Below, piece by piece: positions 1 through 6,296 of a stretch of 6,296 nt of DNA; positions within the stretch are counted from its first letter, which is position 1, and each line of letters starts with the position of its first letter. Under the pieces are notes generated by a model. The model did not search any database. It was not told the DNA's origin and saw nothing but the letters and a program-made list of their open reading frames with translations. This DNA is from a virus (lineage: Duplodnaviria; Heunggongvirae; Uroviricota; Caudoviricetes). The DNA lies in IMG/VR virus record IMGVR_UViG_2663762839_000014; one strand, written 5' to 3'. The position numbers and the translations under genes are program-made.

Positions 1-624
<624 letters not shown>

Positions 625-670
625 TTATTCAGTCGATAGTAACCCGCCCTTCGGGGATAGCAAGCATTTT

Positions 671-720
671 TTGCAAAAAGGGGTAGATGCAATCGGTTAC
701 GCTCTGTATAATGCCGCGGC
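671..720 (+). promoter_or_regulatory. guaB promoter region: A/T-rich upstream tract, -10 TATAAT at 706..711, GC-rich discriminator GCCGCGGC at 712..719
   Basis: Perfect TATAAT hexamer 45 bp upstream of the guaB ATG, followed by a GC-rich discriminator typical of growth-rate-controlled promoters. The -35 is not confidently assignable by eye. GCAATCGGTTACGC (689..702) between the -35 and -10 positions is a weak candidate for the PurR operator described for guaBA; the match is imperfect. Confidence 0.6.
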
Positions 721-755
721 AATATTTATTAACCACTCTGGTCGAGATATTGCCC

Positions 756-2222
756 ATGCTACGTATCGCTAAAGAAGCTCTGACGTTTGACGACGTTCTC
801 CTCGTTCCTGCTCATTCTACCGTTCTGCCGAATACTGCTGACCTCAGCACCCAGCTGACGAAAACTATTCGTCTGAATATCCCTATGCTTTCCGCAGCAA
901 TGGATACCGTAACGGAAGCGCGCCTGGCTATTGCTCTGGCTCAGGAAGGCGGTATCGGCTTTATCCACAAAAACATGTCCATTGAACGCCAGGCAGAAGA
1001 AGTTCGCCGTGTGAAAAAACACGAATCTGGTGTGGTAACTGATCCGCAGACTGTTCTGCCAACCACGACGCTGCGCGAAGTGAAAGAACTGACCGAGCGT
1101 AACGGTTTTGCGGGCTATCCGGTCGTTACCGAAGAAAACGAACTGGTGGGTATTATCACCGGTCGTGACGTGCGTTTTGTTACCGACCTGAACCAGCCGG
1201 TTAGCGTTTACATGACGCCGAAAGAGCGTCTGGTCACCGTGCGTGAAGGTGAAGCCCGTGAAGTGGTGCTGGCAAAAATGCACGAAAAACGCGTTGAAAA
1301 AGCGCTGGTGGTTGATGACGAATTCCACCTGATCGGCATGATCACCGTGAAAGATTTCCAGAAAGCGGAACGTAAACCGAACGCCTGTAAAGACGAGCAA
1401 GGCCGTCTGCGTGTTGGTGCTGCAGTTGGCGCAGGTGCGGGTAACGAAGAGCGTGTTGACGCGCTGGTTGCCGCTGGCGTTGACGTTCTGCTGATCGACT
1501 CCTCCCACGGTCACTCAGAAGGCGTTTTGCAGCGTATCCGTGAAACCCGTGCTAAATATCCGGATCTGCAAATCATCGGCGGCAACGTGGCAACAGCTGC
1601 AGGTGCACGCGCTCTGGCAGAAGCTGGTTGCAGCGCGGTTAAAGTCGGTATCGGCCCTGGCTCTATCTGTACGACTCGTATCGTGACTGGCGTAGGTGTT
1701 CCGCAGATCACTGCCGTTGCTGACGCAGTTGAAGCGCTGGAAGGCACCGGCATTCCGGTTATCGCTGACGGCGGTATCCGTTTCTCTGGCGACATCGCCA
1801 AAGCTATCGCCGCTGGCGCAAGCGCGGTAATGGTGGGTTCCATGCTGGCAGGTACTGAAGAATCTCCGGGTGAAATTGAACTCTACCAGGGCCGTTCTTA
1901 CAAATCTTACCGTGGGATGGGCTCTCTGGGCGCGATGTCCAAAGGTTCCTCTGACCGTTATTTCCAGAGCGATAACGCTGCCGACAAACTGGTGCCGGAA
2001 GGTATCGAAGGTCGCGTAGCTTATAAAGGTCGCCTGAAAGAGATCATTCACCAGCAGATGGGCGGCCTGCGCTCCTGTATGGGTTTGACCGGCTGTGGTA
2101 CTATCGACGAACTGCGTACTAAAGCGGAGTTTGTACGTATCAGCAGTGCGGGCATTCAGGAAAGCCACGTTCACGACGTGACCATTACTAAAGAGTCCCC
2201 GAACTACCGTCTGGGCTCCTGA
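756..2222 (+). CDS. guaB: IMP dehydrogenase (488 aa)
   Basis: The six-frame ORF 687..2222 contains [23 protein letters not shown]... from the internal ATG at 756, matching E. coli GuaB as I recall it, including the catalytic-loop region [11 protein letters not shown] and the CBS-domain insert. The 23 codons upstream of 756 overlap the promoter and are rejected as the start. Confidence 0.97.
961..969 (+). promoter_or_regulatory. Consensus DnaA box (TTATCCACA) inside the guaB coding region
   Basis: Exact 9-mer TTATCCACA about 200 bp downstream of the guaB start. I recall literature on DnaA-dependent regulation of gua transcription through such a box, but a single 9-mer can also occur by chance. 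Confidence 0.5.
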
Positions 2223-2229
2223 TTCTCTT

Positions 2230-2250
2230 CGCCCGACTTCATGTCGGGCG
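2230..2250 (+). other. guaB-guaA intergenic stem-loop (CGCCCGAC-ttcat-GTCGGGCG)
   Basis: Perfect 8-bp inverted repeat with a 5-nt loop directly after the guaB stop, followed by an A/T-rich stretch rather than a clean U-run. Likely an intra-operon RNA structure (mRNA stability or partial termination). Confidence 0.5.
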
Positions 2251-2290
2251 ATTTATATTATCTGTTTCACTTGCCTCGGAATAAGCGTCA

Positions 2291-3868
2291 ATGACGGAAA
2301 ACATTCATAAGCATCGCATCCTCATTCTGGACTTCGGTTCTCAGTACACTCAACTGGTTGCGCGCCGCGTGCGTGAGCTGGGTGTTTACTGCGAACTGTG
2401 GGCGTGGGATGTGACAGAAGCACAAATTCGTGACTTCAATCCAAGCGGCATTATTCTTTCCGGCGGCCCGGAAAGTACTACTGAAGAAAACAGCCCGCGT
2501 GCGCCGCAGTATGTCTTTGAAGCAGGCGTACCGGTATTCGGCGTTTGCTATGGCATGCAGACCATGGCAATGCAGTTGGGCGGTCACGTTGAAGCCTCTA
2601 ACGAACGTGAATTTGGCTACGCGCAGGTTGAAGTCGTAAACGACAGCGCACTGGTTCGCGGTATCGAAGATGCGCTGACCGCAGACGGTAAACCGCTGCT
2701 CGATGTCTGGATGAGCCACGGCGATAAAGTTACCGCTATCCCGTCCGACTTCATCACCGTAGCCAGCACCGAAAGCTGCCCGTTTGCCATTATGGCTAAC
2801 GAAGAAAAACGCTTCTATGGCGTACAGTTCCACCCGGAAGTGACTCACACCCGCCAGGGTATGCGCATGCTGGAGCGTTTTGTGCGTGATATCTGCCAGT
2901 GTGAAGCCCTGTGGACGCCAGCGAAAATTATCGACGATGCTGTAGCTCGCATCCGCGAGCAGGTAGGCGACGATAAAGTCATCCTCGGCCTCTCTGGTGG
3001 TGTGGATTCCTCCGTAACCGCAATGCTGCTGCACCGCGCTATCGGTAAAAACCTGACTTGCGTATTCGTCGACAACGGCCTGCTGCGTCTCAACGAAGCA
3101 GAGCAGGTTCTGGATATGTTTGGCGATCACTTTGGTCTGAACATTGTTCACGTTCCGGCAGAAGATCGCTTCCTGTCAGCGCTGGCTGGCGAAAACGATC
3201 CGGAAGCAAAACGTAAAATCATCGGTCGCGTTTTCGTTGAAGTATTCGATGAAGAAGCGCTGAAACTGGAAGACGTGAAGTGGCTGGCACAGGGCACCAT
3301 CTACCCTGACGTTATCGAATCTGCGGCGTCTGCAACCGGTAAAGCACACGTCATCAAATCTCACCACAACGTGGGCGGCCTGCCGAAAGAGATGAAGATG
3401 GGCCTGGTTGAACCGCTGAAAGAGCTGTTCAAAGACGAAGTGCGTAAGATTGGTCTGGAGCTGGGCCTGCCATACGACATGCTCTACCGTCACCCGTTCC
3501 CGGGACCGGGCCTCGGCGTTCGTGTACTGGGCGAAGTGAAGAAAGAGTACTGTGACCTGCTGCGCCGTGCTGATGCCATCTTCATTGAAGAGCTGCGTAA
3601 AGCGGATCTGTACGACAAAGTCAGCCAGGCGTTCACTGTCTTCCTGCCGGTACGTTCTGTTGGCGTAATGGGCGATGGTCGTAAATACGACTGGGTTGTC
3701 TCTCTGCGTGCTGTCGAAACCATCGACTTCATGACCGCACACTGGGCGCACCTGCCGTACGATTTCCTCGGTCGCGTTTCCAACCGCATTATCAATGAAG
3801 TGAACGGTATTTCCCGCGTGGTGTATGACATCAGCGGCAAGCCGCCAGCTACCATTGAGTGGGAATGA
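2291..3868 (+). CDS. guaA: GMP synthase, glutamine-hydrolysing (525 aa)
   Basis: ORF 2291..3868 translates to [41 protein letters not shown]..., ending ...[10 protein letters not shown], matching E. coli GuaA. It contains the glutamine amidotransferase region (GVCYGMQ) and the ATP pyrophosphatase P-loop SGGVDSS. Confidence 0.97.
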
Positions 3869-3916
3869 TTAACAGCTAACTCATAGCAAATCATTCCTAT
3901 TCAGATGCCAACTCAA

Positions 3917-3947
3917 CCCTCTGTTTTTGCAGGGGGTTTTTGTTTTT
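3917..3947 (+). terminator. Rho-independent terminator of the guaBA operon
   Basis: CCCTCTG-tttttg-CAGGGGG forms a 7-bp stem with one G-U pair (3917..3936), followed immediately by TTTTTGTTTTT (3937..3947), about 50 bp after the guaA stop. Confidence 0.75.
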
Positions 3948-4003
3948 ATGTATTCATTTCTATTCACTCTATACCATATTTTTCGGCGGTACAGGTGACG
4001 GTA

Positions 4004-4018
4004 TTACCTTAAAGGTAT
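4004..4018 (+). promoter_or_regulatory. Dyad motif copy a: TTACC-ttAAA-GGTAt, upstream of the integrase stub
   Basis: One of three same-orientation copies of TTACC-nnAAA-GGTA(A); the others are at 4960..4974 and 5340..5354. It lies about 45 bp upstream of the integrase GTG start and overlaps a TATACT -10-like hexamer at 4016..4021. Confidence 0.4.
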
Positions 4019-4060
4019 ACTCTCATGCCGTCATGAAAATGGTTTCTATACGGGTGAATT

Positions 4061-4210
4061 GTGCTTACCGATACAAAATTAAAAAACCTCAAGCCGCAGG
4101 ACAAACTGTACAAAGTCTCCGATCGTGACGGGCTGTATGTGGCTGTGCTTACGTCAGGTACGGTCTCGTTTCGCTATGACTACCGTATCAACGGTCGCCG
4201 CGAAACACTG
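4061..4210 (+). pseudogene. Tyrosine recombinase (P4-family integrase) N-terminal stub, about 50 codons
   Basis: From the GTG at 4061 the translation is LTDTKLKNLKPQDKLYKVSDRDGLYVAVLTSGTVSFRYDYRINGRRETL, the conserved N-terminal arm-binding region of P4-like integrases. After about codon 50 the frame continues as unrelated sequence to a stop at 4276, and no catalytic domain is present in any frame. Confidence 0.7.
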
Positions 4211-4690
4211 GTAGCCGGGCTTCAGCGGGGCACTGTAGGTTTTGTTCTCTATCTTCATTGCCTGCATCACTGCTGACGCCGTGGCGTTGGCTACTTGGTC
4301 GGCAACCATCTTTATGCGTTCTTCCTGCGGGAGCGAGTTTTTAATGTAACTTCCGGTGCGGCGGATCTGAGGAAGAACCTCACCTGTAACCCATTTACGA
4401 AAGCGGTAGGGGATAGTGCCTGGTGTTACTGCATCGCGGCAGCGGAGGATCAGTGTGTAGAGGCCTGACTCGGAGATGATGATCGATTCTTGCTCACCGC
4501 CAGGGGTGTCGGTTGAAGCGACGCCCTTCTCATCATCATCAAGTTTTCGAACAGTATCTCGATGGTTTGCTATGCCTATAGCCCGACAAACATCTGAAGC
4601 GATAAACCATGGCTCACCATTAATGACGATTACTCGTATATCGGCTTGGGATTCGAAAGAAAAAATGGACGTGCTTTTTGTAGCTGTCAT
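4154..4690 (-). CDS. Bro-N domain protein (phage antirepressor-like), 178 aa; C-terminal ~19 codons read antisense through the integrase stub
   Basis: Residues about 10-115 (FSFESQADIRVIVINGEPWFIASDVCRAIGIANHRDTVRKLDDDEKG...IISESGLYTLILRCRDAV...FRKWVTGEVLPQIRRTGSY) match the Bro-N signature. RBS AAGG lies 8 nt upstream of the ATG at 4690. Confidence 0.75.
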   Translation of the reverse strand: MTATKSTSIFSFESQADIRVIVINGEPWFIASDVCRAIGIANHRDTVRKLDDDEKGVASTDTPGGEQESIIISESGLYTLILRCRDAVTPGTIPYRFRKWVTGEVLPQIRRTGSYIKNSLPQEERIKMVADQVANATASAVMQAMKIENKTYSAPLKPGYQCFAATVDTVVIAKRDRT

Positions 4691-4723
4691 AGTGGTTACC
4701 TTTTAGTCTGGTTAATCACCACT

Positions 4724-4739
4724 ACCGACGCCAATCGGT
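4724..4739 (-). other. Stem-loop ACCGA-cgccaa-TCGGT (plus-strand reading), sharing its loop with the hairpin at 4887..4904
   Basis: 5-bp perfect stem with a 6-nt loop. The 10-mer GACGCCAATC (4727..4736) is repeated exactly at 4891..4900. Lies in the presumed leader of the Bro-N gene. Confidence 0.3.
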
Positions 4740-4847
4740 TGGTGGTGAACTGCGCAGGGTTGGCGTAACCGGCTAAAAGGACCCGGCGCACCTTTCGGTG
4801 CCCCCACACAGCCCACCATAATACGAATGTGACCGTGCTATACGCAT

Positions 4848-4867
4848 AAAAAAACCGCTTGCGCGGT
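4848..4867 (-). terminator. Rho-independent terminator on the minus strand
   Basis: On the minus strand, ACCGC-gcaa-GCGGU (5-bp stem, GNRA-type loop; plus 4854..4867) is followed by seven U (plus A-run 4848..4854). Positioned to terminate transcripts coming from the 85-codon ORF or the candidate small RNA. Confidence 0.6.
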
Positions 4868-4886
4868 GAATGCGCCTTTTAGTAAT

Positions 4887-4904
4887 CCGGGACGCCAATC
4901 CCGG
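4887..4904 (-). other. Stem-loop CCGGGA-cgccaa-TCCCGG (plus-strand reading), sharing its loop with the hairpin at 4724..4739
   Basis: 6-bp perfect stem with the identical CGCCAA loop. Lies inside the candidate small RNA. Confidence 0.3.
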
Positions 4905-4959
4905 CACTGGCAAAATCCAGTGCCCGATTACTATGGCACAAGAGGAGTGCGATGTAAAT

Positions 4960-4974
4960 TTACCGCAAAGGTAA
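4960..4974 (+). promoter_or_regulatory. Dyad motif copy b: TTACC-gcAAA-GGTAA, overlapping the -10/+1 of the putative minus-strand promoter
   Basis: Perfect 7-bp arms with flanks (ATTTACC / GGTAAAT, 4958..4976). Same core and orientation as the copies at 4004 and 5340. Confidence 0.4.
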
Positions 4975-5002
4975 ATATAAGCACTCCACTTGGTAATTGC
5001 AA
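4974..5002 (-). promoter_or_regulatory. Putative sigma70 promoter on the minus strand (TTGCAA - 17 bp - TATATT)
   Basis: -35 at 5002..4997 and -10 at 4979..4974 with a 17-bp spacer, starting directly after the stop codon of the 85-codon ORF. Hexamer match only; a chance occurrence in AT-rich DNA is possible. Confidence 0.3.
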
Positions 5003-5005
5003 ACC

Positions 5006-5263
5006 TTATATGGTTTGTTTTCGTAATTGTTCGGCACAATAGTCGAGATGTGTTTGCAGATCCTGCATAGACATCTGTGAGCTGGTGACGTAGTTAATCA
5101 GTGCAGTCAGTTCGGCAAGTGGGCCATCGACATTAAATCCATCCTTATCGAGATCCCGGAGTAATTTCATCAAGTGCGATCCCTCCACCAGTGACCTGAC
5201 GCCTCCCGGCGTGTGAATCCTTTCGGTAAATCCGTCTTCCAGTGGATAGTGATACTGCTGCAT
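5006..5263 (-). CDS. Hypothetical 85-aa acidic protein, predicted SOS (LexA)-regulated
   Basis: ORF with ATG at 5263, SD GGAG 8 nt upstream (plus 5272..5275), and a near-consensus LexA box 20-40 bp upstream of the ATG. No family recognised from the sequence MQQYHYPLEDGFTERIHTPGG... Coding status is inferred from the RBS and box context only. Confidence 0.5.
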   Translation of the reverse strand: MQQYHYPLEDGFTERIHTPGGVRSLVEGSHLMKLLRDLDKDGFNVDGPLAELTALINYVTSSQMSMQDLQTHLDYCAEQLRKQTI

Positions 5264-5282
5264 CTTATCTTCTCCATGTAAT

Positions 5283-5302
5283 AACTGTATATTTATACAG
5301 TA
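5283..5302. promoter_or_regulatory. LexA (SOS) box AACTGTATATTTATACAGTA
   Basis: CTGT-N8-ACAG with an A/T-rich spacer; 18 of 20 positions match the E. coli consensus TACTGTATATATATACAGTA. It lies in the divergent region between the 85-codon ORF (minus) and the tailspike gene (plus), and overlaps a TATAAA -10-like hexamer in the minus orientation. Confidence 0.75.
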
Positions 5303-5303
5303 T

Positions 5304-5318
5304 CAAACAATTTGTTTG
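5304..5318. promoter_or_regulatory. 15-bp palindrome CAAACAA-t-TTGTTTG adjacent to the LexA box
   Basis: Perfect 7-bp inverted arms around a single central base, immediately next to the SOS box and over the expected -35/spacer region of the minus-strand promoter. Candidate operator for a dimeric regulator. Confidence 0.3.
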
Positions 5319-5339
5319 CTATCCAGCACGTTTTGCGAA

Positions 5340-5354
5340 TTACCTGAAAGGTAA
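5340..5354 (+). promoter_or_regulatory. Dyad motif copy c: TTACC-tgAAA-GGTAA, in the divergent regulatory region
   Basis: Perfect 6-bp arms with flanks (ATTACC / GGTAAT, 5339..5355). Same core and orientation as the copies at 4004 and 4960. Confidence 0.4.
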
Positions 5355-5458
5355 TGTCTATTCGTGTTCACAGTATTTCTATACATATATGGTTTTTAGG
5401 GTAATAGAATAACCAGATGTGCGGCGCAACGGGTGCTGCGACTATCTGGAGATTTAAC

Positions 5459-6296
5459 ATGACGGTCTCAACCGAAATTGACCACAACGAATACACCGGT
5501 AACGGTGTTACAACGATATACCCTTATACCTTTAGGATTTTCCAGAAATCTGATTTAGTAGTGCAGGTTGTTGACCTGAACGAGAACATCACAGAGCTGA
5601 TTCTTGACACTGATTACATAGTTACTGGGCTGGAGGATACAATGGTGGCAATATAATTCTGTCGAAGGCATTGGTTAGCGGTTATCAGATTTCTATATCA
5701 CGAGAGCTTCCGGTTACGCAGGAAACTGATTTGCGTAATCAGGGTAAGTTCTTTGCAGAAGTGCATGAGGATGCTTTTGATAAGCTAACGATGCTGATCC
5801 AGCAGGTTCGAAGTTGGTTTAGCTTGGCGCTGCGCAAGCCGTCAAGTATTGCTAACTGGTACGATGCACTAAATAATTACATCCGTAATCTGAGAGACCC
5901 TAGAGAACCTCAAGATGCAGCCACGAAAAATTATGTTGATACTCTGGCTGTTGGAAATTTCATTCGAACATTACGTGTACCTGAACCTGTCAGGCAGTTC
6001 CCTGATGCAGCAATACGCGCCAACAAGATTCCTGCCTTCGACAGTTCCGGCAATCCGATTGTGGTTTTGCCTCCATCTGGTTCTGCTTCTGACATTATGA
6101 TAGAACTTGCTAAACCAACAGGTGCTGACCATATTGGTACATCATCAGGTGAAACTGTGCAGCATGTAATCGACCGACTTTATCTTCCAAATGATCCCCG
6201 TGGTTATGGCGCACTAACAGAGTCAACAGATAATACCCAAGCGTTCATTCAGGCGATTTATGCTTCACCTAGTGGAATTGTCATAAGGGGAGGTAT
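5459..6296 (+). pseudogene. Phage tailspike / tail-fibre protein, 5' part, interrupted by a -1 frameshift in a G-run at 5627..5629; continues beyond the window
   Basis: From ATG 5459 (SD GGAG 8 nt upstream) the frame reads MTVSTEIDHNEYTGNGVTTIYPYTFRIF...DYIVTG and stops at 5654. The adjacent frame is open from 5614 to the window end (over 225 codons: AGGYNGGNIILSKALVSGYQISISRELPVTQETDLRNQGKFF...). The two frames join if GGG at 5627..5629 was originally GGGG. The last part (PRGYGALTESTDNTQAFIQAI) resembles the start of a pectate-lyase-fold depolymerase domain. Could be a true pseudogene or a homopolymer sequencing error. Confidence 0.7.

Follow-up and report, generated by a model that had tools for sequence, protein, structure and literature searches.

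A very probable short-homology deletion underlies an integrase-antirepressor fusion in a Uetakevirus prophage remnant at guaA of Escherichia coli

The closest described counterparts of the element analysed here are the phages phiV10, TL-2011b and vB_EcoP_ZX5 (ZX5), together with their relative epsilon15. For phiV10, epsilon15 and ZX5 an identical 17-mer attachment core and an identical 190-bp spacing have been published, and overexpression of the full-length ORF4 of ZX5, an antirepressor, has been found to promote the lytic cycle (PMC9782041). Both phiV10 and ZX5 are assigned to the genus Uetakevirus.

Antirepressor genes that are preceded by regulatory RNAs are also known from other elements. 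In the immI region of phage P1 the C4 RNA blocks synthesis of the antirepressor, and the icd gene sits between the C4 region and ant. In the isrK-orf45-anrP region of Gifsy-1 the antirepressor gene lies downstream in the same transcription unit, which is transcribed (280 units) and remains untranslated (4 units) unless the short IsrK RNA accumulates (PMC4825925).

The DNA examined in the present work, referred to below as the window, is a stretch of 6296 bases that constitutes the entire contig CDRI01000453.1, reversed, of the NCBI draft assembly GCA_000946855.1. A first-pass annotation made from the sequence had proposed that this element carries an integrase gene cut short by an internal deletion, with a Bro-N gene running into it on the opposite strand. 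The window was compared with intact relatives so that the breakpoint could be placed at the level of single bases and the competing explanations of the junction could be weighed.

The prophage and its attachment site

The first 3868 bases of the window contain xseA'-guaB-guaA, with 99.8% identity to several E. coli chromosomes. In the closest strains yfgI follows directly after guaA, so that the prophage site is empty there. The features at the boundary between host and phage DNA are as follows.

2291..3868, plus strand: guaA (GMP synthase), 99.8% identity to E. coli guaBA, with its last codons rebuilt by the att core
3854..3870, plus strand: attL core ATTGAGTGGGAATGATT, 17 bp, common to the guaA 3' end and the phage attP
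3915..3938, plus strand: phage-borne terminator-like hairpin (CCCTCTG...CAGGGGG) with a T-run

When the empty site, the window and the phiV10 attP are compared, the 17-bp core is seen to overlap the guaA stop codon, and the start of int lies 190 bp downstream. The hairpin comes from the phage arm beside the core and substitutes for the native guaA terminator hairpin of the empty site.

On the evidence of the attachment site, nucleotide identity and gene order, the element is a prophage of the phiV10/epsilon15 type (Uetakevirus) at the 3' end of guaA. It resembles phiV10, TL-2011b and ZX5 in the att core, the spacing of int and the use of guaA. Positions 4210-5700, which take in bro, the gp19-like gene and the N-terminal part of the tailspike, share 93-97% nucleotide identity with these three phages, and the DNA to the right of the junction is identical to the same degree (93-97%) to O157 typing phages 9 and 10. 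The order int / ... / bro / gp19-like / tailspike agrees with that of the type phages. The window differs from these phages in that it has lost the interior, carries truncated forms of the integrase and Bro joined tail-to-tail, and has a frameshifted tailspike gene whose distal part is of a different serotype-specific type. In place of a complete Uetakevirus genome of about 39 kb, the window lacks 31.8-33.9 kb between positions 4213 and 4214. Prophages of this type occur in about 10% of complete E. coli genomes (545-555 of 5426).

The window sequence is also included in a 9129-base Logan contig from run ERR738831. The NCBI and Logan contigs mismatch at window positions 54, 58 and 168 alone and are identical across the junction region, so that the junction is supported by two assemblies that seemingly derive from the data of one isolate, a link which we infer from the occurrence of only three mismatches in 6296 bases. 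The three mismatched positions lie in xseA, near the end of the NCBI contig, and are probably low-quality end bases.

The integrase-antirepressor junction

Both open reading frames at the junction have the coordinates given in the first-pass annotation; they are convergent and overlap by 123 bp. The features of this region are listed below.

4061..4276, plus strand: integrase open reading frame, GTG start, 71 aa; the integrase-derived part is 4061..4213, followed by foreign DNA
4154..4690, minus strand: Bro-N antirepressor open reading frame, 178 aa; residues 1-160 (4690..4211) are native, and residues 161-178 are encoded by antisense integrase DNA
4210..4220, no strand: deletion junction, with GGTA (4210-4213) present in both parental sites
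5006..5263, minus strand: 85-aa gene, epsilon15 gp19-like, phrog_450 (function unknown), a paralogue of the Bro C-terminal domain

The proposal that the integrase is cut after about 50 codons is borne out by alignment with the 418-aa integrases of KC-Dl-1 and phiV10, to which codons 1-51 are identical and beyond which the sequences are unrelated; 51 of the 418 codons are thus kept. Only profile positions 1-49 of the 83 in the Pfam model Arm-DNA-bind_3 are matched, which leaves the arm-type DNA-binding domain incomplete. A tblastn search of the window in all six frames with the 418-aa orthologue detected no integrase homology past the N-terminus, and no catalytic domain with the R-H-R-Y residues, as had been anticipated. 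These alignments identify the open reading frame as a gene fragment of a P4-type tyrosine integrase and not as a functional member of that family. The DNA to the right of 4213 is instead bro in antisense, with 95% identity to relatives. Integrase codon 51 (GTA) and bro codon 160 (TAC) are the same bases, 4211-4213, read on opposite strands.

On the other side of the junction, the Bro-N domain (PF02498) is complete, as the earlier reading had held: the profile is matched over positions 1-96 of 96 with 75.3 bits against a cut-off of 25.6, at residues 17-107 of the protein. The protein matches phrog_130 'anti-repressor Ant' with E = 9e-56, and its native part is identical to the ZX5 ORF4 antirepressor at 159 of 160 residues. 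The earlier description of the product as a truncated DNA-binding protein is accurate with respect to the truncation, but the relatives' annotation of this protein is antirepressor rather than plain DNA-binding protein.

The loss of the native C-terminus, which had been presumed, is apparent from the comparison with full-length relatives, all of which Bro matches up to Y160 before diverging, while the relatives run on for 71 more residues. Intact Bro proteins have 231 aa in KC-Dl-1, ETEC4068 and ZX5, 228 and 236 aa in two diverged alleles, and 194 aa in phiV10. In this alignment of six relatives, with lengths of 194-236 aa, 178 aa was rejected as the natural length of Bro. In place of residues 161-231 the protein ends in 18 unrelated residues; the C-terminal domain is not present, and the phrog_450/15539-type region (residues 148-231) is gone. 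It had been stated that the last 19 or so codons of Bro are derived from the integrase. This holds for the DNA (4213..4157), but the protein carries 18 foreign residues and not 19, because Y160, encoded within the microhomology, keeps its native identity.

The gp19-like neighbour shares 41% identity over 74 residues (E = 3e-19) with the Bro C-terminal domain of the KC-Dl-1 prophage (L002 37681-38373). Since this neighbour is a paralogue, the domain lost from Bro persists as a stand-alone gene.

The breakpoint was located by BLASTN comparison with the intact prophage of E. coli KC-Dl-1 (locus L002), which lies between guaA and the next host gene. Two collinear segments on the same strand are obtained: window positions 181-4220 correspond to L002 1-4040, and window positions 4210-5629 to L002 37893-39312. 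At the base level, identity with the left parent is perfect up to 4213 and identity with the right parent is perfect from 4210, which places the crossover in GGTA (4210-4213). The left parental site is GGTAATCGGGC, which comprises integrase codons 50-54, and the right parental site is GGTAGCCGGGC, which comprises bro codons 157-160; they share 9 of 11 bases and are direct repeats on the same strand. The sequence around the breakpoint is ...ACACTGGTAATCGGGCAG... in the left parent, ...GCTGCGGTAGCCGGGCTTCAG... in the right parent and ...ACACTGGTAGCCGGGCTTCAG... in the window. The parental site sequences are conserved in phiV10, KC-Dl-1, ZX5 and MINF_2E. A single hybrid copy of the repeat is retained, no foreign DNA has been inserted, and the flanks overlap by 4-11 bases. 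Microhomology of at least 4 bp is expected at about 1.6% of random junctions by a simple calculation, and a perfect match of 4 bp lends modest support to any particular mechanism.

The missing interval amounts to 33,863 bp in KC-Dl-1 (L002 4034-37896), to 31,778 of 39,104 bp in phiV10 coordinates, and to about 31.6-32.3 kb in two other lysogens. Besides the remainder of int and the 3' end of bro, it takes in the repressor and a second antirepressor, an AlpA-family regulator (in phiV10), the genes for recombination, replication, the terminase, the portal, the capsid and ejection, and a tRNA-Arg gene. At the position of the AlpA-family gene of phiV10, which we take to be a possible excisionase gene from its family, a short helix-turn-helix regulator is annotated in KC-Dl-1.

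The distribution of the junction was assessed in 5426 complete E. coli genomes. When positions 3869-5100 were used as a megablast query, 555 genomes were matched, the best matches all started at query base 342 (position 4210), and there were no places in these genomes at which the int'-'bro junction was contained in a match covering at least 80% of the query. With positions 3869-4260 as the left query, matches to 'tyrosine-type recombinase/integrase' were obtained in 545 genomes and always ended at query base 352 (position 4220). Exact patterns of a 30-mer and a 24-mer spanning the junction had no matches in 185,579 species-representative genomes of GTDB, nor in the collections of metagenome contigs and of viral contigs. 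An exact-protein look-up found the fused protein on record for the source assembly and the Logan ERR738831 assembly only. The junction appears, from these searches, to be private to the isolate.

The RNA leader of bro and the tailspike gene

The region upstream of bro contains a C4/IsrK leader with the following elements.

4738..4823, minus strand: C4 antisense RNA (Rfam RF01695), 75.7 bits, gathering threshold 45
4848..4923, minus strand: IsrK-type leader (RF01394), 60 bits, gathering threshold 50, with an intrinsic terminator 4867->4854 and a U-run
4898->4892 and 4882->4875, minus strand: a1 (TTGGCGT) and b1 (CTAAAAGG), respectively, within the IsrK-type leader
4780->4773, minus strand: C4 loop b' (CCTTTTAG), complementary to b1 and b2
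4728..4734, minus strand: a2 (TTGGCGT), complementary to C4 a' (ACGCCAA, 4766->4760)
4699..4706, minus strand: b2 (CTAAAAGG), forming the Shine-Dalgarno region of bro 8 nt ahead of the ATG; complement of the C4 loop b'
4930..4958, minus strand: TG-extended promoter-like site TTTACA-17-CATAGT, recognised by consensus match only; it stops 7 nt short of the IsrK 5' end

The order a1 b1 - C4(b' a') - a2 b2 is present, and b2 covers the ribosome-binding site. The module of C4 and isrK occupies the same place in ZX5, ETEC4068, MINF_2E and EM06-18-14. The stretch at window positions 4699-4958 (minus strand) corresponds to positions 1768-2023, 4289-4545 and 4286-4545 of three relatives (L009, L004 and L005). 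The b', b1 and b2 segments co-vary in an alignment of seven relatives, which contains three variants of the loop and its targets: CCTTTTAG/CTAAAAGG; CCTTTGTAG/CTACAAAGG, in which b1 pairs with one G.U; and CCACTTAG/CTAAGTGG. As read from this alignment, the changes are compensatory covariation for antisense pairing.

The arrangement resembles that of P1/P7 immI (c4, icd-ant) and Gifsy-1 isrK-orf45-anrP in that C4/isrK lies directly upstream of an antirepressor gene. It differs from that of P1 in lacking an icd-like gene at this place: b2 forms the Shine-Dalgarno sequence of the Bro-N gene directly, and the sole open reading frame that intervenes before bro is a 37-codon frame largely within C4. 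This frame (4696-4809, minus strand) starts with GTG, and its counterpart in ZX5 (L009 1779-1892) is annotated 'ash family protein'; this may reflect a spurious call on top of an RNA gene, or the frame may be an analogue of Gifsy-1 orf45.

The earlier remark that bro has a good ribosome-binding site and may still be expressed must be qualified accordingly: expression is possible, but the ribosome-binding site is the b2 target of C4 and is probably repressed by default. Considering both the sequence and the precedents of P1 and Gifsy-1, the Bro fragment probably goes untranslated by default through the pairing of C4 with the Shine-Dalgarno sequence. All promoter-like sites on the bro strand are upstream of the IsrK leader and are no more numerous than in shuffled sequence; a consensus scan of the region found no promoter for int' and no separate promoter for bro.

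In the first hairpin of IsrK (4905-4922), the loop at 4911-4916 is inverted with respect to six of six relatives, so that the window has CACTGG-ATTTTG-CCAGTG and the relatives have CACTGG-CAAAAT-CCAGTG. To judge from the sequence, template switching at an inverted repeat seems to have flipped the hairpin loop. Owing to the inverted loop, the score of the isrK model falls from about 78 to 60 bits.

The final gene of the window is also altered.

5459..6296, plus strand: tailspike gene, frameshifted and running off the contig end

One G has been lost from a run of four, leaving GGG at 5627-5629 where four relatives have GGGG. The N-terminal adaptor part of the tailspike is conserved; the distal part is of a divergent right-handed beta-helix type and has only one relative, 83% identical, among complete E. 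coli genomes. The tailspike frameshift and the inversion of the IsrK loop fit a remnant that is drifting without selection. The NCBI and Logan assemblies terminate at the same base, position 6296, which lies inside the tailspike gene (position 1 of locus L007), and homologous tailspike sequence goes on in a relative. The possibility of an IS element or a repeat at this end of the contig was considered and rejected, the last 247 bases matching a beta-helix tailspike of MARGA_3 at 83% up to the end of the window. The shared stop suggests the presence of a repeat or of a second related prophage in the isolate.

Origin of the junction and state of the remnant

The junction has very probably been produced by a single short-homology deletion that removed the interior of a prophage at guaA and left the int'-'bro fusion. 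The proposal of an internal deletion is upheld by the flanks, which match intact prophages in both order and orientation, as a simple deletion requires. In the course of events that is envisaged, a prophage resident at the guaA 3' end would have lost its interior in one event of illegitimate recombination that joined the direct repeats GGTAATCGGGC and GGTAGCCGGGC, with the crossover falling within the shared GGTA. Some 32-34 kb, or roughly 81% of the phage, would have been removed, leaving attL, integrase codons 1-51, bro codons 1-160 with the IsrK/C4 leader, the gp19-like gene and the frameshifted tailspike gene. The joining may have proceeded by replication slippage or by another RecA-independent short-homology route, since repeats on the same strand, one retained hybrid copy and the lack of an insert together form the signature of short-homology illegitimate recombination, of which slipped mispairing is an example.

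Three other origins of the junction must be weighed against this deletion. If the short integrase frame were the result of a frameshift or nonsense mutation, then the rest of the gene should lie downstream. Apart from the short frame itself nothing speaks for this, and its probability is negligible, because the six-frame tblastn search finds the integrase N-terminus alone, with no significant match past it in any frame, and the DNA to the right of 4213 is bro antisense. The junction could also be a chimera of the assembly, in which case the isolate would harbour an intact prophage. Such an error would be in keeping with a 6.3-kb sequence that is a whole contig of a fragmented draft, that ends abruptly in the tailspike gene, and whose junction is found in no other genome searched. 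However, the independent Logan assembly gives the same junction as the NCBI assembly, the flanks stand in the order and orientation of a real deletion, and the parental sites share only 4 bases (9 of 11 over the repeat). Assemblers based on k-mers misjoin only over tens of identical bases, and a chimera is considered very unlikely. A deletion driven by site-specific recombination at a secondary att site, or an adjacent deletion mediated by an IS element, is also improbable. Events of both kinds do delete prophage DNA, and the mechanism cannot be observed directly; but by eye the junction does not resemble the att core ATTGAGTGGGAATGATT, no IS sequence is left between the overlapping flanks, and both parental sites hold the same short direct repeat, of which one copy is retained, as short-homology deletion predicts.

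A different kind of alternative concerns not how the fusion arose but why it persists, namely that int'-'bro is a selected mini-element, or a domesticated module, that modulates superinfecting Uetakeviruses. The promoter-like site, IsrK, C4, the a and b sites and the Bro-N domain are all intact, and RNAs of the C4 type from P1 act in trans. The RNAs of Gifsy-1 likewise act in trans (PMC4825925). Against a selected module stand the confinement of the junction to one isolate, which gives no sign of spread or selection, and the frameshifted tailspike gene and inverted IsrK hairpin loop (78 to 60 bits), which are typical of neutral decay, so that this explanation is very unlikely. There is similarly only a slight chance that the RNAs of the remnant, and possibly a protein consisting of Bro-N only, act in trans on those superinfecting Uetakeviruses that share its b' specificity. 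If they did, then the consequence would be a bias of the lysis-lysogeny decision or a block of antirepressor-driven induction, and the locus would be a domesticated immunity fragment.

The gene content of the deleted interval implies that the remnant cannot excise, replicate or form particles by itself. The earlier view that the element is unable to excise agrees with this, since integrase residues 52-418 and the AlpA-family gene both lie in the deleted stretch. The Bro fragment, if it is made, would be without its C-terminal domain and also without its cognate repressor target, the repressor gene having been deleted. In annotation, the first open reading frame is best called a fragment of the integrase and the second a truncated antirepressor, while the locus as a whole should be labelled a defective remnant of a Uetakevirus that is locked at guaA.

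Each component, from the phage family and its att site to the integrase, antirepressor and RNA leader, belongs to a known kind, and what is seen here is ordinary prophage decay. The locus provides a clean, base-resolved case of decay through short-homology deletion and has little import beyond annotation. The covariation of the C4 loop with the bro Shine-Dalgarno sequence in three specificity classes extends a known mechanism and may help studies of antirepressors of the phiV10/epsilon15 type.

Decay of a prophage of this family at the same locus is also found in E. coli ETEC4068, where the annotation lists the genes for the portal and the major capsid protein as partial pseudogenes. That prophage differs from the window in having other breakpoints and an intact bro (231 aa), and its locus (L001 1123-2774) is an independently decayed copy.
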